Shown here piece after piece: positions 37,393 through 63,842 of a DNA stretch of 64,000 nt. Position 1 is the stretch's first letter; the number at the start of each line of letters is the position of its first letter. Under the pieces are notes generated by a model, which had not been told where the DNA came from, made no database searches, and saw only the letters and a program-made list of their open reading frames with translations. The translations under genes and the position numbers were made by a program. The DNA is taken from positions 1 through 64,000 of the IMG/VR virus record IMGVR_UViG_3300025853_000045; one strand, written 5' to 3'. The DNA comes from a virus.

Positions 37393-39018
37393 TCACCGAA
37401 TGTTCAACCCTTTCAATAGCGCATCCCATGATGCTATGTGTTTATCGCTTGAGAACAACGCGAGAGGTGCGGCGGCAGGGTCATCATCATCACCACCACT
37501 CCCTGCTGAATCAGGGAACATAACCTGCGCTTGTTCACCACTCGTCGCTTCCTCAACCTTTTGTTTCGCGTCAGGATTGCCTTGTTCTGCTGATTGAACA
37601 GTCGCGTCAGCCTGTGCAGGTGACATACCGTGATAAGCGGCAACAGCCTGTGCCAACTTGGTCCTGTATCCCCTGCTACCTGTCGCGGATGTAATCGCTT
37701 CATAACTTTCGGGTTTGTCAAACAAACCAAGTGCTACTTCACGCGCTTTTTTGCGTGAAGTGCCGCCTGTATATCCTGCTGTATCGAGCATTTGGTCTGC
37801 GAATCGTCCGCGCTCATCATCTTCTTGAGACGCATCTCCGTCAAGTGTGAGGTCATACATTTCTTCATCTTGAGGTTGTTCATTCTCACCTTCGCCAAGT
37901 GTGAGGTCATACATTTCTTCATCTTTAGGAGGCTCGGCAGGTGCAGGTGTTGGATTGATAGCAGGTGGTGGTGGTGAGTCGGTATTGACCGACTCTTTTA
38001 GTCCTTCAGACGCGCTATCAATTTCTTGGTTGATTGCTTCAACAGTTCCTTCATTTGCATCTTGCTCGGCTTGTCGCGCTTCTTGCATTTGTTCAGGCGT
38101 CTGTTGCAATCCACGATTTTGTCGCGAAATGTCCAACGCTCTTCGGAATCTGTTTGGTCGCGGACCTTCTAACGAACTTTTCTTTTCAGCCAATTGTTGT
38201 CGCATCTCTTCTTCTTTTTGAGCCAATGGTGTTTGAGCAATCGCCACCAACTGACGGTGTCGCTCACCTGCGTCAGTTCCCGCTTCTCGACGAGCGCGCG
38301 CTCGTTGGTCTTCTAATCTATTCAAGTCACCTTGAAGAACGTCGCGTCGCATACCTGCCGCTTTGTCTTTGCGTGCTTGGTCTTTCGCTTGTCTTCTTCC
38401 TTCTCGGTAATTCCCCGCCACTCCCATGAAATCTCGCATACGCTCACTCGCGCCCGGAAATTTATCAGCCAAGAATCGCCCTGCCTGACCTGCTTTGTCA
38501 CCGACAAACCGTCCTGCACCTGCGATGCCTCGACCCATACCTTTGACACCTTCGACTACACCTCGACCTGTTTGAGCGACAGCGCGACCTGCGGCTTGTC
38601 CGTATTGACCTGTTCGTGCTAAATTGCCAACGGTGCGTTGTCCTTGCTCAAGCGCGGCTTGTGAATCCAAAGCGCGTTGCGCACCGAGCAAACGTCGTGC
38701 GTCTCGCGCATTTCTAAAAGCGGTATTTGTATTACCAACAGTTCCCGAAATAGCAGGAACAAATCCTTGATTGACGCCGAAAGGTTGCTGTGGTTGCTGT
38801 GGTTGCGGAACATTCTTCCGAATGATGTCAGGATGTGAGTTGTCGCGCTCCGCGACAGCCTTGATGAGTGGCTCCCAAGTGTCGTCGTGTTGATTGAGCA
38901 TAACGTAATTGACATCCGTGAGGTTGCCTCCTTTCGCGAAGATAAACTCCATTGTGCCTAAATCGACACCGTGTTCAATCATACTGCTGTTCCATTCAAT
39001 TTCCCATGTTTCAACCAT
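37393..39018 (-). CDS. Hypothetical protein (541 aa), possible internal virion protein
   Basis: GGAGG ribosome site before MVETWE; G/A/R-rich helical repeats; two EEMYDLTL motifs; ends ASWDALLKGLNIR. Confidence 0.7.
   Translation of the reverse strand: MVETWEIEWNSSMIEHGVDLGTMEFIFAKGGNLTDVNYVMLNQHDDTWEPLIKAVAERDNSHPDIIRKNVPQPQQPQQPFGVNQGFVPAISGTVGNTNTAFRNARDARRLLGAQRALDSQAALEQGQRTVGNLARTGQYGQAAGRAVAQTGRGVVEGVKGMGRGIAGAGRFVGDKAGQAGRFLADKFPGASERMRDFMGVAGNYREGRRQAKDQARKDKAAGMRRDVLQGDLNRLEDQRARARREAGTDAGERHRQLVAIAQTPLAQKEEEMRQQLAEKKSSLEGPRPNRFRRALDISRQNRGLQQTPEQMQEARQAEQDANEGTVEAINQEIDSASEGLKESVNTDSPPPPAINPTPAPAEPPKDEEMYDLTLGEGENEQPQDEEMYDLTLDGDASQEDDERGRFADQMLDTAGYTGGTSRKKAREVALGLFDKPESYEAITSATGSRGYRTKLAQAVAAYHGMSPAQADATVQSAEQGNPDAKQKVEEATSGEQAQVMFPDSAGSGGDDDDPAAAPLALFSSDKHIASWDALLKGLNIR
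37842..37925. repeat. Perfect 30-bp direct repeat, 2 copies (37842-37871, 37896-37925)
   Basis: caagtgtgaggtcatacatttcttcatctt twice with 54-bp period; encodes DEEMYDLTL. Confidence 0.9.
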
Positions 39019-40816
39019 TGAGTGCGCCTCCACAAGACCGCTTGATAGCGCGAACCACGTCATGCGTCGTGTTAAAAGATTTCGCTATCACATTCCAATC
39101 TCCGAGCGACATAGCAATCGCGCGGACATCAAGACTCGACATACCTACATTTTCGCCCAACTGTTGCATATCATACGAATCCATAGGGTCGTATTTCTGC
39201 ATCAATGAGCCACCTGCGTCATGCATTTGCACACGCTCCATAATCGTCGCGATGACACCCATTGGGTCATCGTTCGACTTCATTGAGAAAGATGGACCGA
39301 ACCCACCAAACCCTCCAAATTCAGGCGGAGCAAATCCGCCGAATGGCACTTGGGCTGAACCGCCTTCGTCAGCCAACGGGTCAGCCGCGAGAGGTTTTTG
39401 CGTTTCGTTCTCGGACGGCATTGTGGTCAATGGCTCTTGAGGTGGGAGCAACGGCTCAACAGGTTGTTGTTCCGCGCCTATCGTTCCTCCACTCAAGTGC
39501 GACGGGAAGGAGTCGTGCAAATGGTCGTAGTTCGTATTGAATTTACCGCGCATATCATGATGTTCGTCAGCAAGACCGAGCGAATCCATGTCGATTTGTC
39601 TCGCTCTCGACGAAGCATATTCGACGTAATTATCACGCACATTCGGTCTTGTAAGTGGAGTGTCGCCAAGTTCGACGCCTGTTTCTTCTGCTGTCTTGAG
39701 CATAGCCATGATGTCGATTGCCGCATTCTTTTGGCCGCGTTCATCATCGCCAATAAGACGACCAAATTGTCCGACGTGTTTCGTGTAAAGTTGGTGAATA
39801 TCGCGATTTTTGTCAATGCCGATTTGTTCTCGTATGTCTTTCATTATGGTGCGCAAACCTGTTGCACGTCCATCTTTACCTGTTCCTCCGCCATACAACA
39901 ACTGATTGACGGGAGCGCGAGCCATCTCTCTCGCTGTGTTTTGGTCGTATCCCAACTCCATCAATTCATTCATGAAATCAGTCGACATACCGCCCTGCGT
40001 TGATGGATTGAAGAATGCATTCGGTAAAACAGACACGATGGACATAGGTGATATTTCACCATACGCGGCAGTTTGAGAGTGCAATTGTTTGTAATGCGAA
40101 GGGAATTTTGTGTTCTTCTTTGACGTTGGGTCAGCCTCATTTGACGTGTATCGTCGCGTTACTCCACTTGTAATTTGTTGAGGTTCGATAACGTTCTGTC
40201 TTGCACCCAAACGTGTATCTATACCGCGCTTCTTTACTTCATCTTGGAACTCTTTGGAAAAATGAAATGCCGCTGACTCAAGATGCACACCAAGCGTTGG
40301 GTGCGCTTTGTTGTTCGCGTGGTTGTTGATTAACTTCCCATCTTCTGTTCTTGTTCTTCGTTGTGCTGTCGGCACACGCTTGTGTTCGTGCGAACCGTAG
40401 TGATTGTTCATGTATTCAGGATGGAGACGACCATCTTCTCCGAACGGAATTGGGACGGTGTGAAAGTCGTCGTTGTTGTCGCGTTTGATTTTGTTGAATC
40501 GCATCGCGGAAGCATTCATGATTTCTTTCGCCATACTCAAAGCGTTGGATTCTGTTGTCGGCTTTCGCCTGACGCCGTTTTCATCAATGTATCCTCCCTT
40601 CATGATTTCATTGGCTAAAATCATCGCGCTTTTCTCCATAGGGAATTGACGCATGTGCGCAGGTATCTCCTTGAAAGGCTTACCTGTTATCGAATTGATG
40701 TAAAAATGTGATTCGTTTTCGTGGTCAGAATCTTCAGGTGGGAACGACATAGGGTGCATGACCCCATCTTCGTCCATGTAGTAAACGCCTTTTCCTTTGA
40801 GGATGATGTCGCTCAA
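39011..40816 (-). CDS. Hypothetical protein (601 aa), possible internal virion protein
   Basis: TTG start overlapping the upstream TGA after GAGGTGG; begins MSDIILK|G; several h-h-K sites near the C-terminus. Confidence 0.7.
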   Translation of the reverse strand: MSDIILKGKGVYYMDEDGVMHPMSFPPEDSDHENESHFYINSITGKPFKEIPAHMRQFPMEKSAMILANEIMKGGYIDENGVRRKPTTESNALSMAKEIMNASAMRFNKIKRDNNDDFHTVPIPFGEDGRLHPEYMNNHYGSHEHKRVPTAQRRTRTEDGKLINNHANNKAHPTLGVHLESAAFHFSKEFQDEVKKRGIDTRLGARQNVIEPQQITSGVTRRYTSNEADPTSKKNTKFPSHYKQLHSQTAAYGEISPMSIVSVLPNAFFNPSTQGGMSTDFMNELMELGYDQNTAREMARAPVNQLLYGGGTGKDGRATGLRTIMKDIREQIGIDKNRDIHQLYTKHVGQFGRLIGDDERGQKNAAIDIMAMLKTAEETGVELGDTPLTRPNVRDNYVEYASSRARQIDMDSLGLADEHHDMRGKFNTNYDHLHDSFPSHLSGGTIGAEQQPVEPLLPPQEPLTTMPSENETQKPLAADPLADEGGSAQVPFGGFAPPEFGGFGGFGPSFSMKSNDDPMGVIATIMERVQMHDAGGSLMQKYDPMDSYDMQQLGENVGMSSLDVRAIAMSLGDWNVIAKSFNTTHDVVRAIKRSCGGALNG

Positions 40817-42710: not shown

Positions 42711-42735
42711 AGCAAAGACCAAGTAGCCGTATCAA

Positions 42736-43230: not shown

Positions 43231-43231
43231 A

Positions 43232-43813: not shown

Positions 43814-43822
43814 GATACAACC

Positions 43823-44704: not shown

Positions 44705-44708
44705 TTTA

Positions 44709-46257: not shown

Positions 46258-46327
46258 TTTATTGATATTATCATATTATTATTACAACAATATAGTATAT
46301 TATCATTATAAGAAAAATATGATATTA
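46258..46327. promoter_or_regulatory. AT-rich intergenic island upstream of the GTPase cluster
   Basis: About 70 bp almost devoid of G/C, far more AT-rich than the flanking genes. Confidence 0.55.
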
Positions 46328-49300
46328 TTGAGAATCATCTTCTCCCAATTGCGGCACGTTCGGTCGAGGGAAAAGTTGGAATTGCGGCAACCCTGCCGTT
46401 TCAAGTTGCTGTTGTGGTGTCATTGGGATTCGCGGTGATGGCATTTGAGATACCGTCGTTGGTTGCTTTTGCGGTGCGACAGGAGGCGCAAGTGATACAG
46501 GGCGTTGTGCTGTTGATTGTATCGGCGTTCCCGCGTGCCTTCGGTGCGCTATCGAATCGTATATATGTAAATCATCGAAGCGACCGTGTTGCCATGTGGG
46601 GTGGAAACCGTTGATGCCTTTTATCACGTTTTCAAATTCTTTCATTTCGGCTTGATTCAATTTTCCTTCTGATGCCGCTTGCGACACCTCTTCGGCTGAC
46701 GCGAATCCACCCTTTTCCATCAAGTCCATCATTTTTTGGTCATAAACGACATTTGGCGTATATTCGTGTTCAGCCACTTTCCACATCAAGTCGTGCATTT
46801 GTTTGTCTTGTTGTCGCGCTTCTTCGGATGCGCTGTAATTGACAGCGACGCTTTCTTTGAAGACTTGTTGCGCGTTTGGAATGGAGTGCGGTGTTACGTC
46901 GGCAGGTTTAGCGTCGTTCAAAATTTCTTCTTTGAAATCATCACCTTTCAAACCTGCAACCTTTTTCGACATCGTTAATTTCTTTTCCATATCGTTCTCA
47001 TCTTGGAATCCTAACATTCGCGCGGCTTCGTTGTAGGCTTGAGTCATGAGGGGGGTATCGTTTTGTATGAGTGTCAGGAAGTTACCCGGCGACATGCGCG
47101 TGTCAGCCGACAATCCAACTCTTTTGTTCGCGGACACAATCTTTTCGTGCAATCCAACGTGGGACAATCCGTCGTATTCTTCACACAACTGTTTCAAACC
47201 TGTCAAAAGCGCGAATTGATGCCACATTGGTTTGACTGCGTTTCGGACTTCTGCATTGTATTCCGCGTCTAACCCTTTTCGCTTAACAGGGCCGTGAACG
47301 TATTCTCCTTCCTTTAAATCGCGTGAGAAGTATAAATTGCGCTTCGATTGTTTCATTTGATTTTTAATTTCGTCAGTCCATGTAGGTTCGGCTGATGACG
47401 TCTCGACATTTTCAAAATCGACTCTTCGGTCAGCATCAAATCCGAATTCATCCAACAACGCTGACAAAGCAGGGTGCGACATCTTGGTCAGTTTTTGCTT
47501 CACCATCGGTGTGTATTTCACACCTTTTTCTCGCGCATCGTTGGCTTCTTTGTCATCAGCGCGTCCTGTGGTGACAAGATTCAACATTTTGTTGGCTTCT
47601 TCTTCGTCGAAGCCACTCTCGCCCGTATGACGATTCCATGCTTGAGTGAATTCAGGTGAGTGTCGGAACAAATGAAGAACGTCTTCGACGTCCATAACGT
47701 AAGGCTTACCTGCGTTCTTAGGATGAAAAATTTCTCTTAGCGACTCAAACGGTGTTTGAAAACGCCCATGTTCATAGATGAGTGAACTATATTCCGAAGG
47801 ATTGTCTCCCCTTAATCGACCTTCTTTGTCCACGCTGAATTGTTGTTTTTCACTTCTTACAAGATGACGTGTCGCGTAATCGTGAAGTCGTTCCATTGCT
47901 TCCGACACTTCATGCTCTTCGTCTCCGTGAGACATGGATTTGTCAGGGTGGTTGAGAACCGTGTTGAGCAATTCAAGAACTTCATCTTTGTCTTGACCAT
48001 TTTCAATAGCCGTGTTCGCCATGTTACTTGCGCGCACTTCAATCATGTTTTCGTGATACGCTCTCATCAGCGCGTCACTCTTTACTTCGCTTTCAGGTAA
48101 TTGGTCGATACCTGCTGAATCTTGCGGTTGTTGTGCGAGCCGCTCAATTGCGTCTTCCATTGAAGCAGGAGCCATCTGACGAGGCGATGCGTCTTCTTCT
48201 CCTTGTTCGGCTCTAAATTGCGCAACAAGGTCTTGGAACGTCTTTTCTCTTCTTCGCGCTTCGTCTCCGCCACCGTAACGCTTTGCGTTCAATTCTCGGA
48301 TTGTTCCCATGTTGGTCAAAGGTGCAAACATACCTCTCGCGACGTTGTCTTTGAACACCTCAAGTGCCATACTTTTTGTCGAAGGGCGTCCTTTGACACC
48401 CATAACTCGACCCAACTTTTCTTGAAGTGTGTCGGTTGTAAACGATTTACCATGATGAGGATTGTGTCGTTCACCTTCATATGAGTGTTCGACACCATTA
48501 TCATCGACCATTGAATATCCCTTGAGCCAATCGTCGTCGTCAGGGTGAAGAATGCCGTGTCCGTGACATTGCGAACAAACACCGTCAGCACACCGTCCTG
48601 TGGGCGAATCTTCGTTTTCGTGGTCGCAATCAGGGCAAGTGACGTGATGATGTTCGTGTGGCTCTTTTCGCGAACCTTCAAAATTTTCTTTGTTTGGTGG
48701 GCGCAAGTGTTTTCTGATGTGTTCTCTCATCGCTTTACTTTGAGGGTGCGCGTTGCGAAGTAGTGGATTATGGGCGCGTATGTAGGATATTGCATCATTC
48801 ATAGTGACGGCTCGATTACCACCACACGTTCCGCACGCAGTCGCACCACCGCGAGAAAATGGCACGTCGAACGATTCACCGTTTTTAATTCGCTTAAGTT
48901 CTTCATCGGTGTAATGACTGTTTTGAATGGCTTTTGCAATCTCGTTTTCAGTCATCTCTTTTTCTTCTTCTTCTATGGTTTTGTTGCCCGTCAAAATATC
49001 CAAGCGCGCTCTTGTCATATCAGCCTCGTTGTATTGAGCATCAAGAATAGCGTTCATTTGTTTGCGCGAAAGTCCGCGCTTGTTGTATTTACGACTGTGG
49101 GCTTGCAACACAGCCATGTCAGAAAGATTTGGTAAGTGCTTGTTGTTGTCCATGAACGTGAGACCTGTTCCACCACTTGCGCCCATTTGACCCACCATGT
49201 ATTCGTCAGGTGCATACAAAGTTGATTGGCGCGTATTGCCCTCTCCGTCAGCCATGAAGACAGTCGAAAGAGGGAAGCCATCGTCGCCTGTGTAAAGTTG

Positions 49301-52300
49301 TTCACGCAACTTAAGAAGCATGTTGAGTTGCTTCTTTTCGTCTTTTTCTTTGAGAATAGGCGCGAGAAGGTTTTCGTATTTTTTCTTCTTTTCGTTGTAT
49401 GACATGCAATTGACCAATGCACCAAGCGCGTATTCGTTTCGTCGCTTGTTGTATTCTTCGTCGTTTCTGACGATTTCAGTCTTTGATTCAATGCCGCTTA
49501 TTCGATTCTTCATTCTCTTGAAGTAATCGGCAGGATTCTTCACACCATCCCTGAATGCTTCCTTTTCAAAGAACAACGTTTTACCTGCTTGGAGGAACGA
49601 GTTCTTAGGAACTTCGGTAAATCGAATTGCACCGCGCCCCGCCTCAACATTCTCAATCAACGGTTTGTCGAGAACGAGACGGTAATTTTCACCTTGTTTT
49701 CGCGGTGGGCGACTGTCGACGATGCGATAGGTCTGATTACTCAAGTGACTCAGCGACCCTACGGTGATTTGAGAGTCGCCAATTTTGATGTTATGAAGAC
49801 CCATAGCATATCGCGGAATCTCAATCTCTCTTTGCCCCATTTGAGCGTCCTGCACCATATCGACATGTCCGTCGCGTATAGCGTGCAATCTTTCGTTGAG
49901 TTCATCCGCGTGTTGTTGTGCTATCGCCGCCTTTTGTTGCATCGCGATTGCGTGTCCTTTAGGATTAACTTTTTCCTGCAAATTACCGCTTTCGACGCGC
50001 TTACCGAACTCTTTGTTCCACGCATCCATCGCGAGTTGATAACGTTCTTCGATACCACCCAAGTGTTCTTGAAGCATCTGATACCGACGCAACTTTGCTT
50101 CGTTCTTTTTGGCGAGATTGATGTCTTTGCTGTTGTTTACAATGAACTTCTTGATGTCGCTTCTTCCTTTGAAATCTTTGACTTTGTAATTGTATTTCTT
50201 TTTACCCTCTTTGTATTGGTATTTGCCGTCTTCGACGTCGTTCATAATCTCCAACGCTTCAACAAGACCACCCATTTGCGCGTTGAACAAATTGTCCAAT
50301 CGCAACTGTTCACGTTCTTCGTCGCCCATGAAATTTGAACCCGCAATATGTCCAATCGCGACACGTTGCGCGGCAGAACTTCTCGCTCCACCCATCGGTT
50401 GAATTTTTTCATCTTTGAATTTGATGCCCGGAAATTCAACGTCCAAATCTTCAATTTTTTCGTTGTATTTCAGCGCGGCTTTGCGTATTTGATTCTTGAT
50501 TTCTCGACGAACACCGTCGCGACCACCCTGATAGTATTTCGCTTTACGTTCCAATTTGCTTTTGAATGTGCTAAATTCAGTTCCTTCACCCAACACATGA
50601 TGTGCAATCTTAGCCAACGACGTTTTGCTTTCATCGTCAGAAAACAACGGAATGTATTCGTCTTCGTTCGTTAGTGTATTGAAGATGAAATCGAGTTGCG
50701 GAACCATGACACGCTTGTGTTTTATCGACGATGTGCGTGCGCCGTCGCGAGCCATCCTCGCCTCTTCAGGCGTCGACGATGAAAAATGCTTAGGGTGACA
50801 CGCAACACATTGCTCTTCATCGTCAATGATTTTTTCTTTGCGCTTATCAGGTAAGCCTTCCAATTCTTCTCCTTCTTTTGGTTTCGCGTTGTGATGGTCG
50901 ATGTGTCGCTTTGTTTGCGCTATTCTTTCTTCGTAGCGCGCTGTATTCTCAGCGTGTGCATCGTTCATTCGCTTGATAGCATACATTGTTCGCAACGCCG
51001 CACCTTTCGTTATGTCGCCGCCCAACTTACCAAACATGCTCGCGAATGCTTGGTCGAATCCTTCTTTTGTAAATCCTGAATTTGCATAGCGCGCTCCCAT
51101 ATCAGCAATGTCGATGGGGTCAATGCCGAATTGTTCAGCGATGTTGCGCAACTCTTCTGCGTCTCTCGCCGCTTTGTTGAGGAATTGTTGCGTGACCCCT
51201 GCTTCAAAACATGTGTTGTATCGCTCAATGTTCTTTTCAGATTGCTTGTTTAATGCTGATTCAGGGTCGTCAGCGTTTACTATTTGATTCATATTGTAAA
51301 TGTCTTCGGTGTTGAGATTCAAGTCCATAATTTCTTTTAACGACAGACCGCTTTTCCTCAACTTCCCTCTCACTTGAACAACGCGACGATTCGCTCCAAC
51401 CAAATCATCCATGAACTTCGATGCTTCTTTGATGATTTGAATTTCGTCGAGTTTATGATACGGGTGGCCTTCAGGGAAGTCATCTCCGTGAGGAATTTCG
51501 CTGAAATACGTCGGACGATAGTCTCCTGTGACGTCGTTCAACACTTGGTCGCGAAGGTAATTGTATTCATCTCGACCACCTTCAAACATGTCGTTTTCCA
51601 ACATGAAATCTAAATCGAGAAGACGGCTATCTTGCGCGACTGTTGCTTGTCCTCCACCACGTCTCGTTGATGCAGTATAACGCCCCAACTTGGTCTGCTT
51701 TACACCACCTTTCGTTCCTTTTACTTCACGTTGCATTTCTTCAACAGAAGGAAGATTGGCTGTTTCACCGCGCGCACTTCTATCTCCACCACGTTCAGTT
51801 CGCTCCTGCAAACCAACGTCTTTGATGTCGGCTGACACTCCCACTTCAGGCATTTTCGCTTTGCTATCCACTTCATCTCCCAACTGATACAGAATGCCTT
51901 CATCTAAAGCAGTAGCAAGAGCAGGGTGCGCTTCCATTTCATTATCGAATTGAGGCGGGTCGCGTGCAATTGCGCGTCGATTCTTTTCGCTGTTCGGTGC
52001 GTCTCCGCGTAAGAAAAATTCCGTCATACCATCAGGTGCGTTTGGTCGCGATTCCAACGTCACACCCATCTTACGCGCCTGTTCGTAAAACGAAGGCGTA
52101 ACGAAGTCGGGAGCCTTGATTGACGTTGCCGCACGACCAAAGCGTCCACCGCGTCCCGCAGTCCCGACAGCACGATTTTGTAGGAATACGCGCATGTGTT
52201 TGTTCAAATCTTCTTGAACCAACTGCACCGCTTCTTTGACGTCAGATAGACCTTCGTCCTTCGCTTTACGGTCAATCAACCGCTTCCATTTGTTCATTTC

Positions 52301-53248
52301 TTTCGCTTTACCCGCATACACTTCGCCGGGTCGGAATACAGGGCTTGAGAAAACCTGTTGTTCATACAACTTCTTTGCTCTATCAAGGTCAGCGCGCACT
52401 TTTCGCGGCTCATCAAAATATGCCGCCTGTTCTTCAGGCGTTTTGTATTGCGCGCTAAAGTCTTCACGGTTTGGTTTGGCTTGAGTGACACCTTCCAACA
52501 TGCTTTGCGGTATGTCGCGCAATGACTTTCGACCCGACACTCTTACCATCGAACCTTTCTTTGGTCGCTCTTTGAATTTGCCAAGACTGCGGAACGTTGT
52601 TTCACTCAACGGGTGTCGAGACTTTTCTTTGAAGTATTCCATCAACTTGTTTTTTCCTCGCGGCGAATCAGCGTTGTCAATCCATGCTGTGATGTCAGGT
52701 GGCACGCCATGTGTTTTCATTCGCTTCCCTAATTCACCGTTGTCTTGTTCGTCGATGTCTTTAATGAACTGCAACTCTTGACCGTCTAACGGTTCGCGAC
52801 CGAGCAAATCCGCTTCTTTTTCTAAAAATTCTTCGCTTTGAAAGTGTTCAATCATCTTGTCGAGTGAATCAAGAACGCGCTTCGTAATAATCGGAACAGA
52901 CATCATGCTCGGTATTGCGATGTCACCCTCTTCATCAAGCACTTCGCTGTATCGTTGGTCTTCGTCAAGACCCAATTTATCAGCCAACATATTGTTGTTC
53001 GCGAAAAGAATGTCGTCGTAAAGTTCACCGAAGTCAATGTCACCGACTTCTGTAAATTCATCGTCGTCTTCTTCACCTTCTTTCCAGCGCGGAGGATTTT
53101 TCATCAATTTTTCCATGTATCGCGCCATGAGCCTGTCAGCCAACTGTTGATTGGTTGGTGCTGTGCGCCTCATACCACGCTTGAATCGTCGGACGGTGTC
53201 CTCTTCCTCTTCTTCGTCGGCCTTGATGATACGGACAAAGCGACGCAT
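46325..53248 (-). CDS. Very large hypothetical protein (2,307 aa) with CxxC/DnaJ-type Zn motifs
   Basis: Start moved to MRRFVRIIK|A to avoid overlap with the divergent gene; charged and helical; CVACH, CGTCGG, CPDC, CSQCHGHG. Confidence 0.8.
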   Translation of the reverse strand: MRRFVRIIKADEEEEEDTVRRFKRGMRRTAPTNQQLADRLMARYMEKLMKNPPRWKEGEEDDDEFTEVGDIDFGELYDDILFANNNMLADKLGLDEDQRYSEVLDEEGDIAIPSMMSVPIITKRVLDSLDKMIEHFQSEEFLEKEADLLGREPLDGQELQFIKDIDEQDNGELGKRMKTHGVPPDITAWIDNADSPRGKNKLMEYFKEKSRHPLSETTFRSLGKFKERPKKGSMVRVSGRKSLRDIPQSMLEGVTQAKPNREDFSAQYKTPEEQAAYFDEPRKVRADLDRAKKLYEQQVFSSPVFRPGEVYAGKAKEMNKWKRLIDRKAKDEGLSDVKEAVQLVQEDLNKHMRVFLQNRAVGTAGRGGRFGRAATSIKAPDFVTPSFYEQARKMGVTLESRPNAPDGMTEFFLRGDAPNSEKNRRAIARDPPQFDNEMEAHPALATALDEGILYQLGDEVDSKAKMPEVGVSADIKDVGLQERTERGGDRSARGETANLPSVEEMQREVKGTKGGVKQTKLGRYTASTRRGGGQATVAQDSRLLDLDFMLENDMFEGGRDEYNYLRDQVLNDVTGDYRPTYFSEIPHGDDFPEGHPYHKLDEIQIIKEASKFMDDLVGANRRVVQVRGKLRKSGLSLKEIMDLNLNTEDIYNMNQIVNADDPESALNKQSEKNIERYNTCFEAGVTQQFLNKAARDAEELRNIAEQFGIDPIDIADMGARYANSGFTKEGFDQAFASMFGKLGGDITKGAALRTMYAIKRMNDAHAENTARYEERIAQTKRHIDHHNAKPKEGEELEGLPDKRKEKIIDDEEQCVACHPKHFSSSTPEEARMARDGARTSSIKHKRVMVPQLDFIFNTLTNEDEYIPLFSDDESKTSLAKIAHHVLGEGTEFSTFKSKLERKAKYYQGGRDGVRREIKNQIRKAALKYNEKIEDLDVEFPGIKFKDEKIQPMGGARSSAAQRVAIGHIAGSNFMGDEEREQLRLDNLFNAQMGGLVEALEIMNDVEDGKYQYKEGKKKYNYKVKDFKGRSDIKKFIVNNSKDINLAKKNEAKLRRYQMLQEHLGGIEERYQLAMDAWNKEFGKRVESGNLQEKVNPKGHAIAMQQKAAIAQQHADELNERLHAIRDGHVDMVQDAQMGQREIEIPRYAMGLHNIKIGDSQITVGSLSHLSNQTYRIVDSRPPRKQGENYRLVLDKPLIENVEAGRGAIRFTEVPKNSFLQAGKTLFFEKEAFRDGVKNPADYFKRMKNRISGIESKTEIVRNDEEYNKRRNEYALGALVNCMSYNEKKKKYENLLAPILKEKDEKKQLNMLLKLREQLYTGDDGFPLSTVFMADGEGNTRQSTLYAPDEYMVGQMGASGGTGLTFMDNNKHLPNLSDMAVLQAHSRKYNKRGLSRKQMNAILDAQYNEADMTRARLDILTGNKTIEEEEKEMTENEIAKAIQNSHYTDEELKRIKNGESFDVPFSRGGATACGTCGGNRAVTMNDAISYIRAHNPLLRNAHPQSKAMREHIRKHLRPPNKENFEGSRKEPHEHHHVTCPDCDHENEDSPTGRCADGVCSQCHGHGILHPDDDDWLKGYSMVDDNGVEHSYEGERHNPHHGKSFTTDTLQEKLGRVMGVKGRPSTKSMALEVFKDNVARGMFAPLTNMGTIRELNAKRYGGGDEARRREKTFQDLVAQFRAEQGEEDASPRQMAPASMEDAIERLAQQPQDSAGIDQLPESEVKSDALMRAYHENMIEVRASNMANTAIENGQDKDEVLELLNTVLNHPDKSMSHGDEEHEVSEAMERLHDYATRHLVRSEKQQFSVDKEGRLRGDNPSEYSSLIYEHGRFQTPFESLREIFHPKNAGKPYVMDVEDVLHLFRHSPEFTQAWNRHTGESGFDEEEANKMLNLVTTGRADDKEANDAREKGVKYTPMVKQKLTKMSHPALSALLDEFGFDADRRVDFENVETSSAEPTWTDEIKNQMKQSKRNLYFSRDLKEGEYVHGPVKRKGLDAEYNAEVRNAVKPMWHQFALLTGLKQLCEEYDGLSHVGLHEKIVSANKRVGLSADTRMSPGNFLTLIQNDTPLMTQAYNEAARMLGFQDENDMEKKLTMSKKVAGLKGDDFKEEILNDAKPADVTPHSIPNAQQVFKESVAVNYSASEEARQQDKQMHDLMWKVAEHEYTPNVVYDQKMMDLMEKGGFASAEEVSQAASEGKLNQAEMKEFENVIKGINGFHPTWQHGRFDDLHIYDSIAHRRHAGTPIQSTAQRPVSLAPPVAPQKQPTTVSQMPSPRIPMTPQQQLETAGLPQFQLFPRPNVPQLGEDDSQ

Positions 53249-53320
53249 TGTTATAGCGCACGACAACCATGCCCTTGAAGATAGCGGTATTTCTTTAATC
53301 GCGAATAGCATGCGTTGTTT

Positions 53321-53944
53321 ATGGGCGCGCCGTTTGCACAGTCTTGGGCGTTTCTCAAAGCCGAGGCTTACATCAATATGAATAGTGATGTTCACAATCA
53401 AACTATTGTTCCTCAAGTTGAGGGTGGTATGCATAGTCCAAAAGGCACTTTCATCTCTTCACTACCGCGCTATCAACAACCAAGACCCGATGGACCAAAT
53501 TACCGACGCGGGGGTTCAGTTCCGCGTAATTGGGATGAAAAACACGGCAATCAGCGATTTACGGGAGTGAATGTCGCTAACCAATGGCAACACCTTCGCG
53601 ACGAAAATCCAACCGTTGACGAGGAAGAATTGCAAGATTCATTTGCTGATAAGTTCGCTACTGCTTCTGCACATGAGGATGTTCACGGTTTGACAGACGC
53701 CGAAATAGGCACATGGGCGGCACACGCGGTTGGTGGTTTCCCTGCCAATTTAGCGGCAACCAACTTTTCTGTTCCTAAAAATCGCGTAAAAGATTGGAAA
53801 ACGCTTCGCGACATGGCTCATGAATATGGTGCTTACAGCCTAACTGAACCCGAAGCAAAGAAGCGGAAAATGGAGTATTACCACTTTGCTCCTTATTTGA
53901 CGGGTGAAAAGGATATTTCAGAATTACATTCGGGTTCGCGTTAA
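53321..53944 (+). CDS. Putative zinc metallopeptidase-like protein (207 aa) with SW..K leader
   Basis: HEDVH (53672-53686) plus downstream HEYGAY Glu; starts MGAPFAQSWAFLK|A; TTTAAT about 25 nt upstream. Confidence 0.6.
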   Translation: MGAPFAQSWAFLKAEAYINMNSDVHNQTIVPQVEGGMHSPKGTFISSLPRYQQPRPDGPNYRRGGSVPRNWDEKHGNQRFTGVNVANQWQHLRDENPTVDEEELQDSFADKFATASAHEDVHGLTDAEIGTWAAHAVGGFPANLAATNFSVPKNRVKDWKTLRDMAHEYGAYSLTEPEAKKRKMEYYHFAPYLTGEKDISELHSGSR

Positions 53945-54385: not shown

Positions 54386-55468
54386 ATGTCAGAAGACTTA
54401 ACCCTGCAAATTGAAGCATGTGGTTCTCTTGTCATGAGTGGTTTGAAACTAATTCAATCCGCTCCTGTCAAGGAAGCCAAGACAAAGGGCGACAAGCACA
54501 AACTGTGTGCTGAACTCGTCCGTCAAATGAACAACACCCCAACCAACGGTGGCCCATCGTTGTTGTATGCCATCCGAGACCATGTAGTTTCGGAGGGTAT
54601 CGACAACACAACGATGTCCAAGACAGTTGAGAAGAAGGCGAACGGTAAACCGTCGTCCTTCAACATAGGCAATCAAGCCTACAACATCCTTGCGGATGTC
54701 CTCAACGCTGTCAGGGCTCAACTACCGAAGGGCCTCAAGAAGGTGAACACAACAGCACTCAAAACTGCTTGTGTCGCTCTCGTTGAAGCCTGTTGGCCTG
54801 AATCGGATGAAGAAGACGACGACATCGTTTTCGACTTCTCCGACTCCGACGATGAACCAACGGTTGATGACCTCGATGAAGATGACTTCGACGACGATGA
54901 AGATACTGAGGCGTCTGTTTCAGGTTCTTTCATCGACATCGACCTCATCAAGGCCAAAGCATCAGAACCATCTGTTGTTGAGAACGCTTTCGCTCTCTAT
55001 ACCAACGATGACAACGTTGATGCTAACGGTGGCTTTTTCCGTTTCTATAACGGCAAGGGCAGAACATCGAAGCCTCTTCATCACAACACCCGTTCACCAC
55101 TTGAACAGTTCAAGGCTACTGTCTGCAACTACATGATGGCTAACCTTTCGGGTCTCTCATGGACTCGACAGAACAAGCAGAACGAGAACGTCTTTATCCC
55201 AACTCCAAAAGAGAACAGGGACATAGGACGTCGAGTTGTCTCGGCTGTCATGATTCTTTCAGGTGTAACCAAATTCAACCATGACCTTCGCAAATACATC
55301 AGCGATGATACCATTGGTCGAATCTGTTCCGCTATCTTCGGTGAAGTCCCTGACTCATCCAACCTTAAGTCTCGACATGGTTGGACATTGCCGTATGAAC
55401 GTGGTAACACCGCTTCTTCATCTGTTGATGATGAAGCATACACCATGAACGTCATCAACCTGCTTTGA
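54386..55468 (+). CDS. Hypothetical early protein (360 aa), two domains joined by an Asp/Glu linker
   Basis: Has its own promoter, ribosome site and terminator; acidic tract ESDEEDDD...DDFDDDED. Confidence 0.8.
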   Translation: MSEDLTLQIEACGSLVMSGLKLIQSAPVKEAKTKGDKHKLCAELVRQMNNTPTNGGPSLLYAIRDHVVSEGIDNTTMSKTVEKKANGKPSSFNIGNQAYNILADVLNAVRAQLPKGLKKVNTTALKTACVALVEACWPESDEEDDDIVFDFSDSDDEPTVDDLDEDDFDDDEDTEASVSGSFIDIDLIKAKASEPSVVENAFALYTNDDNVDANGGFFRFYNGKGRTSKPLHHNTRSPLEQFKATVCNYMMANLSGLSWTRQNKQNENVFIPTPKENRDIGRRVVSAVMILSGVTKFNHDLRKYISDDTIGRICSAIFGEVPDSSNLKSRHGWTLPYERGNTASSSVDDEAYTMNVINLL

Positions 55469-57248: not shown

Positions 57249-57505
57249 CTGACGAATTGAAGACACGAATCGAAACAGACGAATACATTTACGAAGAATA
57301 CTTTGACGCGACTCAAGGTATCGACCAACAACCAACACCCTCAATGACTGCATGGAATCGCTCGATGCGTTCCTTGTTTCACTTGCAACACAAAACAGAC
57401 GCCCCTGAAAATCAGGATTGCCTCAAGCACATTTACGAAGAGCGCAACAAAAAGAACCGTTGCGTCTGTGACGAATGCTTTGAAGGAGATGAAGAAAATG
57501 ATTGA
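57245..57505 (+). CDS. Hypothetical protein with Cys cluster (86 aa)
   Basis: ATGA overlap; GGAGG ribosome site; CLKH...CVCDEC. Confidence 0.65.
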   Translation: MTDELKTRIETDEYIYEEYFDATQGIDQQPTPSMTAWNRSMRSLFHLQHKTDAPENQDCLKHIYEERNKKNRCVCDECFEGDEEND

Positions 57506-59039
57506 GAAACCTATGACCAAAGAAGAAACAACCGAATTGATACGAAAAGCAATGGGTGGAACACCAACCGCTGAAATCATTGAAGCAACAGCACGCCGAT
57601 GGCAAAGCGAAGCATTCAGTCATTGGCTCGGACTCCCTGATGACGAACGCCGAATGACTGTTCAGGCCGCGACAGGTTCAGGTAAGACACGCCTTGCAAT
57701 CATGTGCATCATGGAACACATCAGAAGATACGGCGACAAAGGAGTTGTCGTCATGGCTGTGCCATCGAAAGATTTGGTTCAGCAAACAGGCGAACGCCTT
57801 CGTGGATTCTCGATACGATACGCGAGAGTCTCTTCCCAATACGGCAATGAGTATATGCTCAAGCGACCCGTTTACATCACCACTTACCACTCACTTGACA
57901 AAGTAAGCAACAACAAACATGTTGTTGGTAAGAACATCCTATTCATCGGAGACGAATGCCACAAGATAGGCGCAACAAGAACAAGAGAACGTCTCGCTCA
58001 CTTTCAAGGAGACGCCTGTCTCCTTCTCTCCGCTACACCTCGACGAGGTGATGGCTTATCCGTCATGCAAATCATGAACGCGCCAATCAGATACACACTC
58101 AACCTTGTTGATGGTATCGCACAATCGCGAAGTGGCGGTGGCGAATTGGATTACACCATACACCACGTCGCTCTCACTCTCACACCTTCGGAGCAATTTC
58201 ATCTAAGCGAACTCGATGAGCAAGTTAAGACGCTCAAGTATGTTGCTTTGGGTGCGCTCAAAGAGTTGGGTCGCATATCGGGCAACGACGGAACTGTCGA
58301 AGACATCATGCTCTATTCAAACGCTGACGTTGAAGAGGTTGGATGGTATAAAGCAAAGACGATGGAGCGTAAGCGAGCCGAGACCAAGATTGCAGACAGG
58401 ATGTCTGCTGTCGTCGCACTACTGCGAATGCACGTTGGTAAGAAATTCGTCATCTTCCATGAGTCCATCATCGGTCTTGAGATTATTGCACAGTTGTGTC
58501 GCGACGAAGGTATCAACCCACACATTTACCACAGCGGATTGGAGTTGTCGCAAGAAGACATCGAGAATTACCCTGAATTTATTACGCCTGATTTGTTTGA
58601 CCGACTCCACGAATACAAGAAGAACGCGAACAAACACTTGACTCGATGGAAGGAATCAGCGAGTGACTTCCTACTTACTTGTAAAGCATTGAAGGAAGGA
58701 TTCGATGCGCCTGATATGGATGGCGTCGTCATGGTATCAGGAACAAACGCTACTCGCTCTCGCATTCAAACGATTGGCCGTGTGTTTCGCGGTTCATCTC
58801 ACAAAGACATTTACTATTTCGTCTCACCTTCTGCAACGACTGACAGAAATTCAGGGGATGAGAAGTCATTCCACAACGTCATGAGAGAATCAGGAATGGA
58901 ATACAGCAAAGTCAAATACACATCAACACAGATGCTTGAATCTTTCACCGCGTCTGTTTCTTACGGCGAAGTGCATGGATTGCATTTGCCTGAAGAAGAA
59001 GAAGAAATGTTCGACCTCACACTTGGGGAAGAAGAATGA
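57498..59039 (+). CDS. Superfamily 2 DExH helicase, XPB/Rad25/ResIII-like (~513 aa)
   Basis: RRWQ, AATGSGKT, VPSKDLVQQ, DECH, LSATP, EGFDAP, QTIGRVFR. Confidence 0.92.
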   Translation: MIEKPMTKEETTELIRKAMGGTPTAEIIEATARRWQSEAFSHWLGLPDDERRMTVQAATGSGKTRLAIMCIMEHIRRYGDKGVVVMAVPSKDLVQQTGERLRGFSIRYARVSSQYGNEYMLKRPVYITTYHSLDKVSNNKHVVGKNILFIGDECHKIGATRTRERLAHFQGDACLLLSATPRRGDGLSVMQIMNAPIRYTLNLVDGIAQSRSGGGELDYTIHHVALTLTPSEQFHLSELDEQVKTLKYVALGALKELGRISGNDGTVEDIMLYSNADVEEVGWYKAKTMERKRAETKIADRMSAVVALLRMHVGKKFVIFHESIIGLEIIAQLCRDEGINPHIYHSGLELSQEDIENYPEFITPDLFDRLHEYKKNANKHLTRWKESASDFLLTCKALKEGFDAPDMDGVVMVSGTNATRSRIQTIGRVFRGSSHKDIYYFVSPSATTDRNSGDEKSFHNVMRESGMEYSKVKYTSTQMLESFTASVSYGEVHGLHLPEEEEEMFDLTLGEEE

Positions 59040-59076
59040 TAGTCCACGCGACAAACAAAAAAAAGGAGGAACAAAA

Positions 59077-60203: not shown

Positions 60204-60595
60204 ACAGCATACCAAAGACAAAAAGATACATTGAAATGGACATCAAAGAAAAGATTGCTAACGATTGTGGAGGCACACAACTTATTGATGATGTGAACCA
60301 TCCTGTGCGACGCTACTTCCGCTGTTGGCTTGACGGTTCTTACGAATACGATGGCGGGATTACTTATCGTCGCAACTGTGATTTCATTCTGAAACATCAC
60401 GACGACCATCGAATCATGCGTCAGTTTGTTGTCAATCAGTTCGCTACTTACACAGCACACGAATACAATTGTTCGGTTAGATACGCGAGAGAATGTATCG
60501 TTGCTTGCATTGAGAAACCAAATCTTGAGCATCTCAATGAGTTGCTTATCGAAGACGCACTCGACCTTGTTGACATAAGGGAGGAAGAACAATGA
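60200..60595 (+). CDS. Hypothetical protein (131 aa)
   Basis: ATGA overlap; GGAGG ribosome site. Confidence 0.7.
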   Translation: MNSIPKTKRYIEMDIKEKIANDCGGTQLIDDVNHPVRRYFRCWLDGSYEYDGGITYRRNCDFILKHHDDHRIMRQFVVNQFATYTAHEYNCSVRYARECIVACIEKPNLEHLNELLIEDALDLVDIREEEQ

Positions 60596-61017
60596 AAGAA
60601 GAACAATACGAAGACCGAAGACAAATGGCCGTTGATATTCTCAACGGTATAGACAACACGAACATGACCAGCGATGGATTGATTCGCCACGCGATGGACT
60701 TGATGTGCAACTATGGATACACAACATACCGCAAAGCAATGCGCACAGTCCTTGAGTATTACAATGCGAATCCGAAAATGTATCGTAACGACATACCGAC
60801 CCGCTACACATACATGGGTCAGTTGTGGCGAGAAGAATACCCCGACGCGTATGAAACATACCGAGAGGAACTTCGCGCAAAGCGAGAAGCCCAAAAGATT
60901 GCAGAAGAAAAAACCATCGTCAATCAAATGATAAGCGACTTGGCTCATGACTTGGCGAACCGCGACCAACACAACTCGATGATTGGCTTTGAACCAACGG
61001 ACGGTGAGGGTCAATGA
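60592..61017 (+). CDS. Hypothetical protein (141 aa)
   Basis: ATGA overlap; GGAGG ribosome site. Confidence 0.7.
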   Translation: MKEEQYEDRRQMAVDILNGIDNTNMTSDGLIRHAMDLMCNYGYTTYRKAMRTVLEYYNANPKMYRNDIPTRYTYMGQLWREEYPDAYETYREELRAKREAQKIAEEKTIVNQMISDLAHDLANRDQHNSMIGFEPTDGEGQ

Positions 61018-61181
61018 AGTCAGTCTTCATGCTCAGTGTTCCCTACGAAGGACTATGTGGACCTGCTTTTACTACCCGCGAAGAAGCGGAGAAGTTTTGG
61101 TCGGAAGAAATCAGCACAGACTACGGTGAGAAAATCGTTGAAGTCAAGGTTCGCACATCAGCAAAGGAGGATTCACAATGA
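61014..61181 (+). CDS. Small hypothetical protein (55 aa), below the ORF-track cutoff
   Basis: ATGA overlaps at both ends; MKSVFMLSVPYEGLCGPAFTTREEAEKFWSEEISTDYGEKIVEVKVRTSAKEDSQ. Confidence 0.7.
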   Translation: MKSVFMLSVPYEGLCGPAFTTREEAEKFWSEEISTDYGEKIVEVKVRTSAKEDSQ

Positions 61182-61636
61182 GTGACCAAGACGCTTGGCT
61201 GACTGAACTTGAAAAACTGATACAAGACCCGCACTCGGTTGTGTCGTTCCACATGAATGACACAGGCGACGGAGAATACATACTGAACGCTGATGCAATC
61301 ATTCGACCATCGAGCATGTATCGAAATGTATTCATCAACCCACACAGAACATTCTCTAACCTGCCACACAGCATGGTCAAGACATGCCCTTCGTGCCAAA
61401 GCGAATGGCAATCGTTCGTCAGCAACGGTCTGATGGACGTGCGATATTGTTGTGGTATCTCCATTTGTGAGAATACATACGCGCAAGTTAAAAATCGTAA
61501 CCTTTATGGTGAGAGTAGCGTTGCAAAAGATATGGCGCGCAACACAGAAATAATGTTCGACCTGATTCTCGATGATGACATCGAAGAAGAAGACGACGAC
61601 GACATGTTCGACCTAACATTAGGAGGGACTATCTGA
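61178..61636 (+). CDS. Zinc-binding protein with acidic MFDLTL tail (152 aa)
   Basis: CPSC...CCG..IC; ends EIMFDLILDDDIEEEDDDDMFDLTLGGTI. Confidence 0.7.
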   Translation: MSDQDAWLTELEKLIQDPHSVVSFHMNDTGDGEYILNADAIIRPSSMYRNVFINPHRTFSNLPHSMVKTCPSCQSEWQSFVSNGLMDVRYCCGISICENTYAQVKNRNLYGESSVAKDMARNTEIMFDLILDDDIEEEDDDDMFDLTLGGTI

Positions 61637-61830
61637 TGCGCCGATTTGAATTAAGAACCAATTCAAGAGACGATGCGTTCTTTCACATTCACATCGTTCA
61701 TGATGAAGAAGAACGACGACAACAACGACTCAAGGACTTCAAGAAAGTCATTGAGATATACTGCGAGAACTTGAAGTCTCGCACATCACAGTCCACAGGA
61801 CACAACACAAAAAAGGAGGAAAAAATATGA
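61636..61830 (+). CDS. Hypothetical protein (64 aa)
   Basis: GGAGG ribosome site; coupled on both sides. Confidence 0.6.
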   Translation: MRRFELRTNSRDDAFFHIHIVHDEEERRQQRLKDFKKVIEIYCENLKSRTSQSTGHNTKKEEKI

Positions 61831-63842
61831 ACCCCGAAAAACAAGTAAGAGCCGTAGTAATCGGCTCGGTGAAGCAAGAAAACAACACCATGAAGCAGGT
61901 GATTTACACCGACGCTTCAGGTGACGAACAAACGAAATGGATACCGAACGCGTGTATCGTCTCGACGGAAGAGATTGACGGTCAGTCAATCATGTTCCTA
62001 CAAGACGCGACTGTCAATTCGGTTGAAGTAAGTGTAGCAGATATGTATGGTTTCTCAACCGACCACGCACAGATGCAAGACATGGCTGACGCATGGATTG
62101 AGTTCGGTGAAGTAACACCGTTCTCGCTCGACGCTGTCGAACTTCAACGCGAAGGTGAAGAAGTCGAAATGGATTTCGCATCAAAGGATGACACCGTTGA
62201 GATGTTTGACCTAACATTGGAAGATGACATTGACGACGAAGAGTCTGATGACTCGACGCCTCAATTCGACACCACGTCTTTCGACCTTTCAGCATTCGTT
62301 GAAGAAGAAGAAGCAGTCGATGACGAAGCAGTCAAGCAAGCGAAGAAGAAACAGAAGGCTATCGACAAGGTCGCTCTCGCAAGAGAGAAGCGCAAGGCTG
62401 ACTCCGACAAAGTGAAGGAGACACTCAACGACCCAATCAGCAAAGCAATGGCTGACGGTAAGCGACACGACGACTTTGGTGCATGGAACTTTGAAGCCAA
62501 GACATACGAACTCGCGATGATTGACTACGGGCCGAACGGCGAGAAGACAATCATTCCTGTTCGCACAACAAATGGCGATGCGCGGATGAGAACTGTTGTC
62601 AATCCAACACTCGCTGACGAAGACAACCCACTCGGCGTTGTCCTCAATCGTGCTGTCGGAAGCAACTTTGAAGTCATCGACCACCCAACTGTCTTCAAGC
62701 CTGTCATTGAACAAATCAATGCGGTGAACGATGCGGCGGGTCAAGAGTTGATTTCATGGTCAGCATTCTCAATCAACAAAGGTTCACGCGCTGTCATGAA
62801 CATTGACATCACAGGTTACGCGACCAAGACACGAAGCGAATCAGCCAAGTCCTTGAGCAACTACAACTATGTCAATCTGTCAGCGAATCGAATCCAAGAC
62901 GCGCTTGTCGAAGAGCATGGTGGACACCGAATGGGTGTAACCATCCTCAACTCTCACGACGGTAAGTCAGCACTTCAAGCATTCATGACTGTCCTCCGCA
63001 CTTACTGTGGCAACCTTGCCATGCGCGGTGGTGTTCAGAACTTGTTGATGTATGGCAACAGCACGAAGGTTCGACACATGAAGGGAAGCGTTGGTCAATT
63101 CGACGCTCACGATTGGGCTGAACGAGTCGTTGGTGCATTGGCGGAGAACCAAAAGAACCTCCTTGCCATGTCCATCCTGCGACACATCCCGAAAGAAATC
63201 ATCAACTTCGATAGTATGCTGACTGTTTTCAACAAGCATGGTCTTCTCCCTCAACCGACTGTCAAGGTCGCGGCAGGTGACAAGAATCAATTCGACGTCG
63301 ATGAGCAGGGCAACGTTGTCATGACGACTGCTTCTCTCGGTAAAGATGCGGCTCGCGTTCTTGGCGGACATGCTTACAACGCGGCGGTGAAAGGTTGGGT
63401 CGACCCTGACGTTCACTATGTCGCGGCTACAACCAAGAGTGGTGCGCCTCAACGTGACGAAGATTCAATCGGAACAATGTGGCACGTCGCTCAAGTTGGT
63501 TCAGGTATGGTTACACACAACCCAATGTATTCTGACGGGACGCGTGTTTTGCATGGTAAGAAACAAGGTGTCGAGACGTTCATGAATCGTTCAGGCACAA
63601 TGACTTCTCTCTTTGAAGACATCGCATTCCGCGCTGTCAACAAGTATGCTGAACACACAGGACAACCTGTTGATGACCTCCAAGCAATGGAGCAATGGTA
63701 TGCGGAGAACCCTCACATGCTTGAAGTTCCATACAGCGATACTGTCAAAGGCACAAAGAAGATGAAGCCAATCACAGAAGTTCCTTCTTTCCAAGAAACA
63801 TGGAAGGTCAAGATTGTTGAAGAAACGGTGAAGACCAAGTAG
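61827..63842 (+). CDS. DUF932-like domain protein with acidic N-terminal extension (671 aa)
   Basis: TILNSHDGKSALQAFMTVLRTYCGNL...VRH matches the NSHDG...R..C.N...RH signature of DUF932/DUF945 proteins. Confidence 0.7.
   Translation: MNPEKQVRAVVIGSVKQENNTMKQVIYTDASGDEQTKWIPNACIVSTEEIDGQSIMFLQDATVNSVEVSVADMYGFSTDHAQMQDMADAWIEFGEVTPFSLDAVELQREGEEVEMDFASKDDTVEMFDLTLEDDIDDEESDDSTPQFDTTSFDLSAFVEEEEAVDDEAVKQAKKKQKAIDKVALAREKRKADSDKVKETLNDPISKAMADGKRHDDFGAWNFEAKTYELAMIDYGPNGEKTIIPVRTTNGDARMRTVVNPTLADEDNPLGVVLNRAVGSNFEVIDHPTVFKPVIEQINAVNDAAGQELISWSAFSINKGSRAVMNIDITGYATKTRSESAKSLSNYNYVNLSANRIQDALVEEHGGHRMGVTILNSHDGKSALQAFMTVLRTYCGNLAMRGGVQNLLMYGNSTKVRHMKGSVGQFDAHDWAERVVGALAENQKNLLAMSILRHIPKEIINFDSMLTVFNKHGLLPQPTVKVAAGDKNQFDVDEQGNVVMTTASLGKDAARVLGGHAYNAAVKGWVDPDVHYVAATTKSGAPQRDEDSIGTMWHVAQVGSGMVTHNPMYSDGTRVLHGKKQGVETFMNRSGTMTSLFEDIAFRAVNKYAEHTGQPVDDLQAMEQWYAENPHMLEVPYSDTVKGTKKMKPITEVPSFQETWKVKIVEETVKTK

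Follow-up and report, generated by a model that had tools for sequence, protein, structure and literature searches.

The window analysed here, positions 1 to 64,000 of the IMG/VR virus record IMGVR_UViG_3300025853_000045 (64,000 nucleotides, nt), belongs to a magrovirus-like tailed virus with an encoded proteome of 20,276 amino acids (aa), in which four unrelated proteins share a short acidic-hydrophobic peptide, M[FY]DL[TI]L. The peptide recurs in disordered segments of a fixed set of carrier proteins, its spelling varies in concert from genome to genome, it is selected at the peptide level, and it is portable between protein termini. The favoured reading, to which a probability of roughly 55% is assigned, is that M[FY]DLTL is the spelling used by this genome for a portable, multivalent docking tag that would bind one co-evolving partner, which is probably encoded by the virus. 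The occurrence of genome-private spellings on the same carriers points to an address tag, which would be read by a single partner.

Six copies on four unrelated proteins

A six-frame scan of the window revealed exactly six copies of M[FY]DL[TI]L, every one in frame within a long open reading frame (ORF). Two MYDLTL copies are found in a 556-aa late protein encoded on the minus strand, at residues 384-389 (37897-37914; flanked by KDEE and GEGE; 35.9 bits in a position matrix) and at residues 402-407 (37843-37860; 36.9 bits). The other four are encoded on the plus strand, namely EEEEE-MFDLTL-GEEE at the extreme C-terminus of a 516-aa SF2 helicase (residues 507-512; 59007-59024), MFDLIL and DDDD-MFDLTL-GG in a 152-aa Cys-rich protein (residues 126-131, 61553-61570, and residues 143-148, 61604-61621), and VE-MFDLTL-EDD in the linker of a 671-aa DUF932-like protein (residues 126-131; 62202-62219). 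A preliminary description of this DNA had listed the same six peptides, and all of them are confirmed in frame, far above the 0.002-0.0045 copies expected by chance; the late protein, given there as 541 aa, counts 556 aa from its first ATG.

Regarding the statistics, the composition of the proteome predicts 0.002 copies. A local shuffle of each 40-aa block, by which low complexity is retained, yields a mean of 0.0045 copies against the 6 found; therefore, the acidic low-complexity background, which the preliminary description had named as a possible source of the frequency, is not the explanation. The corresponding degenerate DNA pattern matches 6 times, with 0.54 matches expected, and has no match outside the carrier ORFs even with one mismatch. 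The position matrix scores the six sites at 32-37 bits, compared with 10 bits for the next best site. The copies in the window are 18-51 nt apart and spread over four genes, and they are not arranged head to tail. A length of 3-10 residues, a location in disordered regions, recurrence on unrelated proteins and selection on the peptide are all found here, as is characteristic of short linear motifs.

The disorder is seen in AlphaFold2 models. The model of the DUF932-like protein (43 sequences) consists of a beta-rich N-domain at residues 8-93 (predicted local distance difference test, pLDDT, about 88), a disordered linker at residues 100-166 (pLDDT about 31) that contains the tag at 126-131, and then a long helix and a C-domain. 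The Cys-rich protein is folded over residues 1-108, and its tail at residues 110-152, which contains both tags, is disordered (pLDDT about 35). No cis-docking of the tags appears in the models of these two proteins; docking of a tag on its own protein was rejected, the tags being disordered and unbound in both.

Genome-specific spelling in related viruses

The relatives in IMG/VR are marine contigs of about 100 kb, and orthologues from more than 40 related genomes were compared. The strict pattern M[FY]DL[TI]L was not found in the related loci and occurs only in the near-identical proteins P0001 (97%) and P0060 (93%, MYDLTL). Alignments of the orthologues revealed a different short acidic-hydrophobic peptide at the same unalignable places, or shifted from them. 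Thus, the scan of related viruses proposed in the preliminary description recovers the exact motif in very close relatives only, but a genome-specific peptide at the equivalent places in the others. Absence from orthologues, if taken as a test, would lead to wrongful rejection of the motif, because the genome-specific peptide takes its place in relatives. The docking peptide put forward earlier is upheld as a portable short linear motif in acidic disordered segments of unrelated proteins, but its M[FY]DLTL consensus is not conserved.

The spellings are best described by genome. In G004, [DE]xPLT[ED][ED] is present twice in early1 (the first early protein), three times in the helicase C-tail, four times in the Cys-rich tail, eight times in the DUF932 linker, and in the late protein; G003, most of whose proteins are 82-99% identical to those of G004, has F[IV]EEDMP or EEEDVP in the same five proteins. 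A position matrix for TLD[IV]G[DN]ITI, the spelling of G005, gives strong matches in six proteins only, which are the helicase (at the N-terminus), the Cys-rich tail, the DUF932 linker, early1, a late 517-aa protein (two copies) and a 2,310-aa protein (three copies). IDWG in G009 and FDM[TS][DE] in G007 are likewise confined to carriers according to position matrices. Further spellings are FDMTG, M.IDFG, EEF.F[NI], [VI]SF.., NTMP[DS][LI], PMDF[GD] and NPFAGL, and the EEF-x-F spelling was found in loci L010, L028 and G001. A common core can be read across these lineages as hydrophobic-x-hydrophobic followed by G, D, T or N, often as hydrophobic-D-F-G or, more broadly, as hydrophobic-D-F/W/L-G/T. 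The tag occurs in 1-9 copies per protein, with arrays of up to 8-9 internal copies.

The concerted nature of the variation is clearest where two carriers from the same genome are compared. The Cys-rich tail is tagged in every relative possessing both the Cys-rich and the DUF932-like proteins, and a common tag is shared with the DUF932 linker in 14 of these 14 genomes. When the 4-mers shared between Cys-rich tails and DUF932 linkers were counted over 12 genomes, they fell on the own-genome diagonal (total 31; permutation p<1e-5, 0/100,000), in a set of related genomes that does not amount to 12 independent events. Searching a collection of 5.8 billion proteins provided 43 DUF932 orthologues (41 full-length), and exactly repeated hydrophobic 4-mers are present in the linker of 34 of the 41 full-length ones, compared with 8 of 164 control windows. 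The helicase tag equals the DUF932 tag in paired contigs of 104,317, 95,360, 101,266, 52,649 and 17,168 bp. The tag is portable: the helicases of this clade have it at the C-end, those of other clades at the N-end, and in the 34 helicase orthologues the tag of the respective genome is found either in the C-tail or in an N-terminal extension. Orthologues of the 556-aa late protein have the tag of their own genome twice in the same region. Overall, the orthologous carrier set of five or six proteins is tagged across lineages down to 33-40% identity.

A comparison of G005 with G009 revealed that most neighbouring genes are 90-98% identical, but that the tags differ (TLDIGDITI vs IDWG). Identity between the same two genomes drops to 33-35% for early1, the late carrier and the 2,300-aa protein and to 61% for the helicase. 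Because these carriers stand at 33-61% against 90-98% for their neighbours, the tag changes together with a hypervariable gene set at the late/early junction.

Regarding the level at which the tag is conserved, the codons of the window copies vary synonymously (CTC/CTG/CTA; CTT/CTC/TTA/TTG; TTC/TTT), and this variation, noted earlier, is real. Codon identity was counted wherever copies from different genes agree in the residue and was compared with the expectation from codon usage. It is near expectation in G004 (0.41 vs 0.36, n=434), G003 (0.47 vs 0.49) and L030 (0.32 vs 0.34), moderately above expectation in the window (0.55 vs 0.34) and in G005 (0.48 vs 0.37), and high in L033 and L039 (0.83-0.85). 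As codons mostly differ between genes at identical residues, selection acts on the peptide and not on the DNA. The helicase copy and one late-protein copy in the window agree at 28 of 30 bases, indicating some recent copying at the DNA level; a 28-nt core is identical in the two late-protein copies, and the tag arrays of the relatives are tandem and partly identical in DNA. Since some between-gene copies are nearly identical in DNA, gene conversion contributes. Both processes are thus at work, recent copying at the DNA level and long-term maintenance of the peptide through synonymous change, and the latter is evidence for a function at the protein level.

Proposed mechanism and alternative explanations

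In the proposed mechanism, a fixed set of five or six unrelated proteins (early1, the SF2 helicase, the Cys-rich protein, the DUF932-like protein, the 556-aa protein and, in relatives, the protein of about 2,300 aa) carries the tag, and the tags would dock all of these carriers onto one common reader, with avidity provided by the tandem copies. Three elements of this mechanism are inferred, namely that the tags bind, that they have a single reader, and that co-evolution causes the concerted change. The binding groove of the reader would differ between virus lineages, and once the reader changes, every carrier would have its tag re-spelled, via repeat turnover within genes and occasional short-patch copying between genes. 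Most plausibly, the reader would be a fast-evolving viral protein of the set that establishes infection, or a strain-variable host factor, rather than the conserved replisome. More speculatively, and with the odds well against it, tag and reader would constitute a strain-private molecular code, by which the establishment proteins that a virus injects or expresses first would assemble only with their own kind. With such a code, archaeal viruses would possess an incompatibility system at the protein level, which evolves as a linear motif is re-spelled in concert on five or six proteins, and the fast diversification of the code would perhaps be driven by pressure from co-infecting relatives, host decoys or defences.

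Several points weigh against the docking-tag reading. None of the candidates examined (a host hub, the clamp, the capsid shell and a 64-aa protein) was identified as the reader, and joint change of five or six proteins together with a reader is a demanding requirement. Some between-gene copies have near-identical DNA (28/30 nt between helicase and late protein; codon identity of 0.83-0.85 in L033 and L039), and gene conversion could in principle homogenise repeats without a specific reader. Kinship among the genomes inflates counts such as 14/14. In addition, the position matrix detects no clean copy in the window's own early1 and 2,369-aa proteins. The 64-aa protein, whose gene separates the Cys-rich gene from the DUF932-like gene, was dismissed as a reader, since it was found in some relatives only.

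An unlikely alternative is that the tags are multivalent stickers, which would bind each other or a low-specificity surface and thereby gather early and injected proteins in a condensate or viral factory. Consistent with this possibility, several proteins have tandem copies in acidic disordered linkers, the alternating hydrophobic pattern suggests strand pairing, and homotypic recognition would explain directly why copies within a genome match. However, the cores comprise only 4-6 residues, their strongly acidic flanks should repel each other, and some carriers have a single copy.

A clamp client motif of the T4 type, by which the tags would tether the carriers to a virus-encoded clamp, is considered quite unlikely. 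In T4, gp43, gp55 and gp33 attach to the gp45 clamp through interchangeable hydrophobic-acidic C-termini (PMC2988020), which match the tag in chemistry and in the diversity of carriers, and magroviruses were reported to encode a clamp (PMC5434244). As in T4/RB69, where the peptides are interchangeable and read by one virus-encoded hub (gp45), a short hydrophobic-acidic peptide is found on flexible linkers or termini and is common to functionally unrelated viral proteins. Unlike in T4/RB69, the polymerase and the replisome enzymes are untagged in relatives (G005, G006, G008, G010 and G011), the tag is often internal and tandem, and its spelling is genome-private instead of family-conserved. Internal arrays as long as these, with up to 8-9 copies, are atypical of clamp clients. 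The C-terminus of PolB (GIFxVLGWDxxAAxGTPRPA) is nearly invariant over five genomes with five different tags, and the polymerase tether therefore does not co-vary with the tag. Furthermore, the tag lacks the pattern of the PCNA-interacting peptide (PIP) box, Q-x-x-[LIM]-x-x-[FY]-[FY], as no Gln and no i, i+3, i+4 spacing is present in the six copies or in the variants of the relatives, in which the cores are spaced i, i+2. All of this argues against a conserved hub, such as a clamp used by the polymerase, as the reader.

A candidate clamp does exist in the relatives. Immediately upstream of PolB, they encode a protein of 251-258 aa with a match to phrog_947 (DNA polymerase processivity factor; E=2e-5 to 1e-4). 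With identities of 52-66%, against 78-88% for PolB, this protein varies more than the polymerase, which would suit a clamp-borne reader; the corresponding gene of the present virus would be located beyond the window. It has no Pfam PCNA_N match, and an hhalign comparison with the host PCNA gave a probability of about 1%, which is not significant. The ORF, located at L044:5007-5765 (plus strand, G005), L060:5380-6153, L051:10948-11700 (minus strand) and L054:1870-2622, is probably the magrovirus sliding clamp. It is unannotated, and naive longest-ORF calling hides it behind an antisense ORF.

A capsid-targeting or cargo-loading peptide in the manner of encapsulin targeting peptides or the T4 capsid-targeting sequence, which would load the carriers into the head for co-injection, is improbable. 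The 556-aa carrier adjoins the large terminase gene, tailed viruses typically have fast-evolving injected proteins, and the spelling of the tag may resemble that of encapsulin targeting peptides. However, the genes for four carriers lie where the opposite, replication-side arm begins, and genomes whose tags differ have portals of about 90% identity. Since the head proteins of such genomes are 86-94% identical, the capsid shell is an unlikely reader.

Distinctly improbable is the explanation that the tags are functionless, slippage-prone acidic repeats, which moved between genes through gene conversion or template switching and would be tolerated by the linkers that house them. Copies within one gene frequently have identical DNA sequences, and certain copies in different genes come close to this. 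A published account of Borgs describes amino acid tandem repeats (aaTRs) that evolve fast from perfect, recent in-frame nucleotide repeats and quickly create disordered regions with motif-like units in these archaeal mobile elements, and it reports that homologous Borg proteins have similar repeat classes encoded by different nucleotides (PMC9879509). Unlike in Borg aaTRs, one unit is common here to a fixed set of unrelated proteins genome-wide, an arrangement not described for Borgs in the passages of that account considered here. Against a lack of function, the between-gene codon identity is at random level in several genomes although the residues are identical, the same five or six orthologous carriers are tagged down to 33-40% identity, and the tag is retained on its move from the C- to the N-terminus of the helicase.

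Highly improbable, finally, is mimicry of a conserved host tail (the ribosomal stalk aP1, an FtsZ- or PCNA-client peptide, or a ligand of a ubiquitin-like protein resembling a SUMO-interaction motif, SIM) for hijacking a host hub: the Poseidoniales aP1 tail, a Glu run plus GGF[ED]GLGSLFG, is loosely like EEEEE-MFDLTLG and the x-F-G variants, but it hardly varies over 20 genomes, in contrast to the hypervariable viral tag, which makes stalk-tail mimicry unlikely, and the Poseidoniales scan proposed in the preliminary description brought no support for mimicry, with 22 exact matches in 301 genomes against about 22 in the reversed control and none in an acidic context. The window spelling presumably resembles classical SIMs of the hydrophobic-hydrophobic-D-L-T type with acidic flanks. 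SIM arrays are tandem, combine a hydrophobic core with an acidic flank, and bind by beta-strand addition. The window spelling and the tandem arrangement are like those of tandem SIMs, but spellings such as PLTEED and IDWG misfit the SIM pattern.

Returning to the docking tag, shared docking peptides are well known for clamps and single-stranded DNA-binding proteins, where they are conserved. The distinctive feature here is a genome-private spelling that changes in step on a fixed set of unrelated proteins, and the virus group concerned is among the most abundant in the surface ocean. No description of an M[FY]DLTL motif was found in the magrovirus or the general literature searched. The acidic C-terminal tails of the T7 gp4 helicase and gp2.5 dock on basic patches of the gp5 polymerase (PMC12593628). 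The tag in the window resembles this system in that an acidic tail is located at the extreme C-terminus of a viral helicase, where it serves as a tether in T7. Unlike in T7, in which the contact is mainly electrostatic, a specific hydrophobic core is selected and is common to non-replicative proteins. If the reader were found, it would represent a new hub of archaeal virus infection, would provide a function for orphan families (the DUF932-like, Cys-rich, early1 and 2,300-aa proteins), and would offer a natural system for studying motif-domain co-evolution across a proteome. In practical terms, the tag can be used as a sequence marker for assigning contigs to one virus lineage and for recognising orphan genes that act together.

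Carrier genes and their genomic setting

The 556-aa late protein (37393-39063, minus strand) is encoded just upstream of TerL, a T4-type large terminase (35986-37386), and has no family match itself. Its N-domain (about residues 1-90) is nearly invariant (WEIEWNSSM.EHG..GTMEFIFAKGG) and is followed by a long, variable low-complexity middle and then by a conserved C-end, SWDALLKGLNIR; the two termini of the protein are encoded at 39028-39063 and 37393-37428. The 516-aa SF2 helicase (57489-59039, plus strand) matches ResIII, DEAD and Helicase_C. The gene for the Cys-rich protein, with its folded domain at residues 1-108 and its disordered acidic tail, is located at 61178-61636 on the plus strand. 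A comparison of its model using VIA-align gave no convincing relative (best Z 4.2).

The DUF932-like protein (61827-63842, plus strand) matches Pfam PF06067 with E=1.7e-5, and a Foldseek search with its model retrieved nothing at E<=0.001. Profile searches of PDB sequences with alignments A3, A4 and A12 gave no match, and a search of the ESM Atlas gave no lead. Directly 3' of the variable tag, the DUF932-like gene encodes a conserved DDSTPQFD followed by TSFDLSAF (62247-62297, plus strand). The motif DDS[TV]PxF (62247-62270) is kept in 43 of 43 DUF932-like orthologues, with D142 and P145 invariant and D141 near-invariant. The variable tag arrays look like diverged copies of this segment. DDS[TV]PxF may be an older conserved motif, the source from which the variable arrays were copied.

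Early1, the first early protein (360 aa; 54386-55468, plus strand), is a carrier in relatives. In the window, it contains a degenerate copy, DDDIVFDFSDSDD (54818-54853), at the place where orthologues have the tag of their genome. Its N-terminus reads MSEDLTL (54386-54406), which the preliminary description regarded as a possible partial copy. The N-terminal match could be due to chance, since about 1 occurrence of DL[TI]L by itself is expected outside the motif and 3 are observed. The 2,369-aa protein (46325-53434, minus strand) is likewise a carrier in relatives (three copies in G005 and one in G007), has no copy in the window, and has no match in Pfam or PHROG. It contains four invariant Cys pairs, C876/C879, C1534/C1537, C1600/C1603 and C1620/C1623. 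Two of the pairs stand in CxxCxGxG/R-like contexts, which are reminiscent of DnaJ-type zinc fingers. The hypervariability of four carrier genes (46325-53434 and 37393-39063 on the minus strand, 54386-55468 and 57489-59039 on the plus strand) suggests module replacement or strong diversifying selection.

The window also encodes a tail-tube-like protein, an HK97-type major head protein, a portal and a head protease. Its relative G005 (102,931 bp, nearly complete) encodes PolB, an SNF2 helicase, a PD-(D/E)XK nuclease, an ERCC4 nuclease, a primase, a DnaQ-like exonuclease and a thermosome-type chaperonin, a gene content that fits the published description of the magroviruses of Marine Group II archaea (PMC5434244). 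Identity between the viral thermosome-like chaperonin and its cellular counterparts reaches only 33-38%, and the comparison yielded no host assignment. The early1 orthologue of G005 is split over both contig ends (102360-102931 and 1-555); because the gene spans both ends, the assembly is circularly permuted or terminally redundant and essentially complete. In several genomes, two adjacent proteins of the replication module, one of 468 aa without an assigned function and one a 332-aa P-loop RadA-like ATPase, share the start MPNLN. In G005, this pair with its conserved shared terminal peptide is located at L044:2095-3498 and L044:3507-4502.

A 141-aa protein (60592-61017, plus strand), encoded just upstream of the Cys-rich gene, has a conserved hydrophobic-acidic C-tail, MIGFEPTDGE, which reads FVGFEPTEGSE in G005. 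It belongs to the faster-evolving early proteins, with 64% identity between G005 and G009 and 31-33% identity to G011 and G007. Many genes of the plus-strand arm end in G-G/E-E-E/D/Q, with the next gene beginning within a few bases (59025-59039 and 61622-61636 in the window), and the same acidic gene ends are found in G005, for example at 2692-3099, 6041-6595 and 13948-14469. These acidic C-ends are probably dictated in part by the GGAGG-like ribosome-binding site of the downstream gene.

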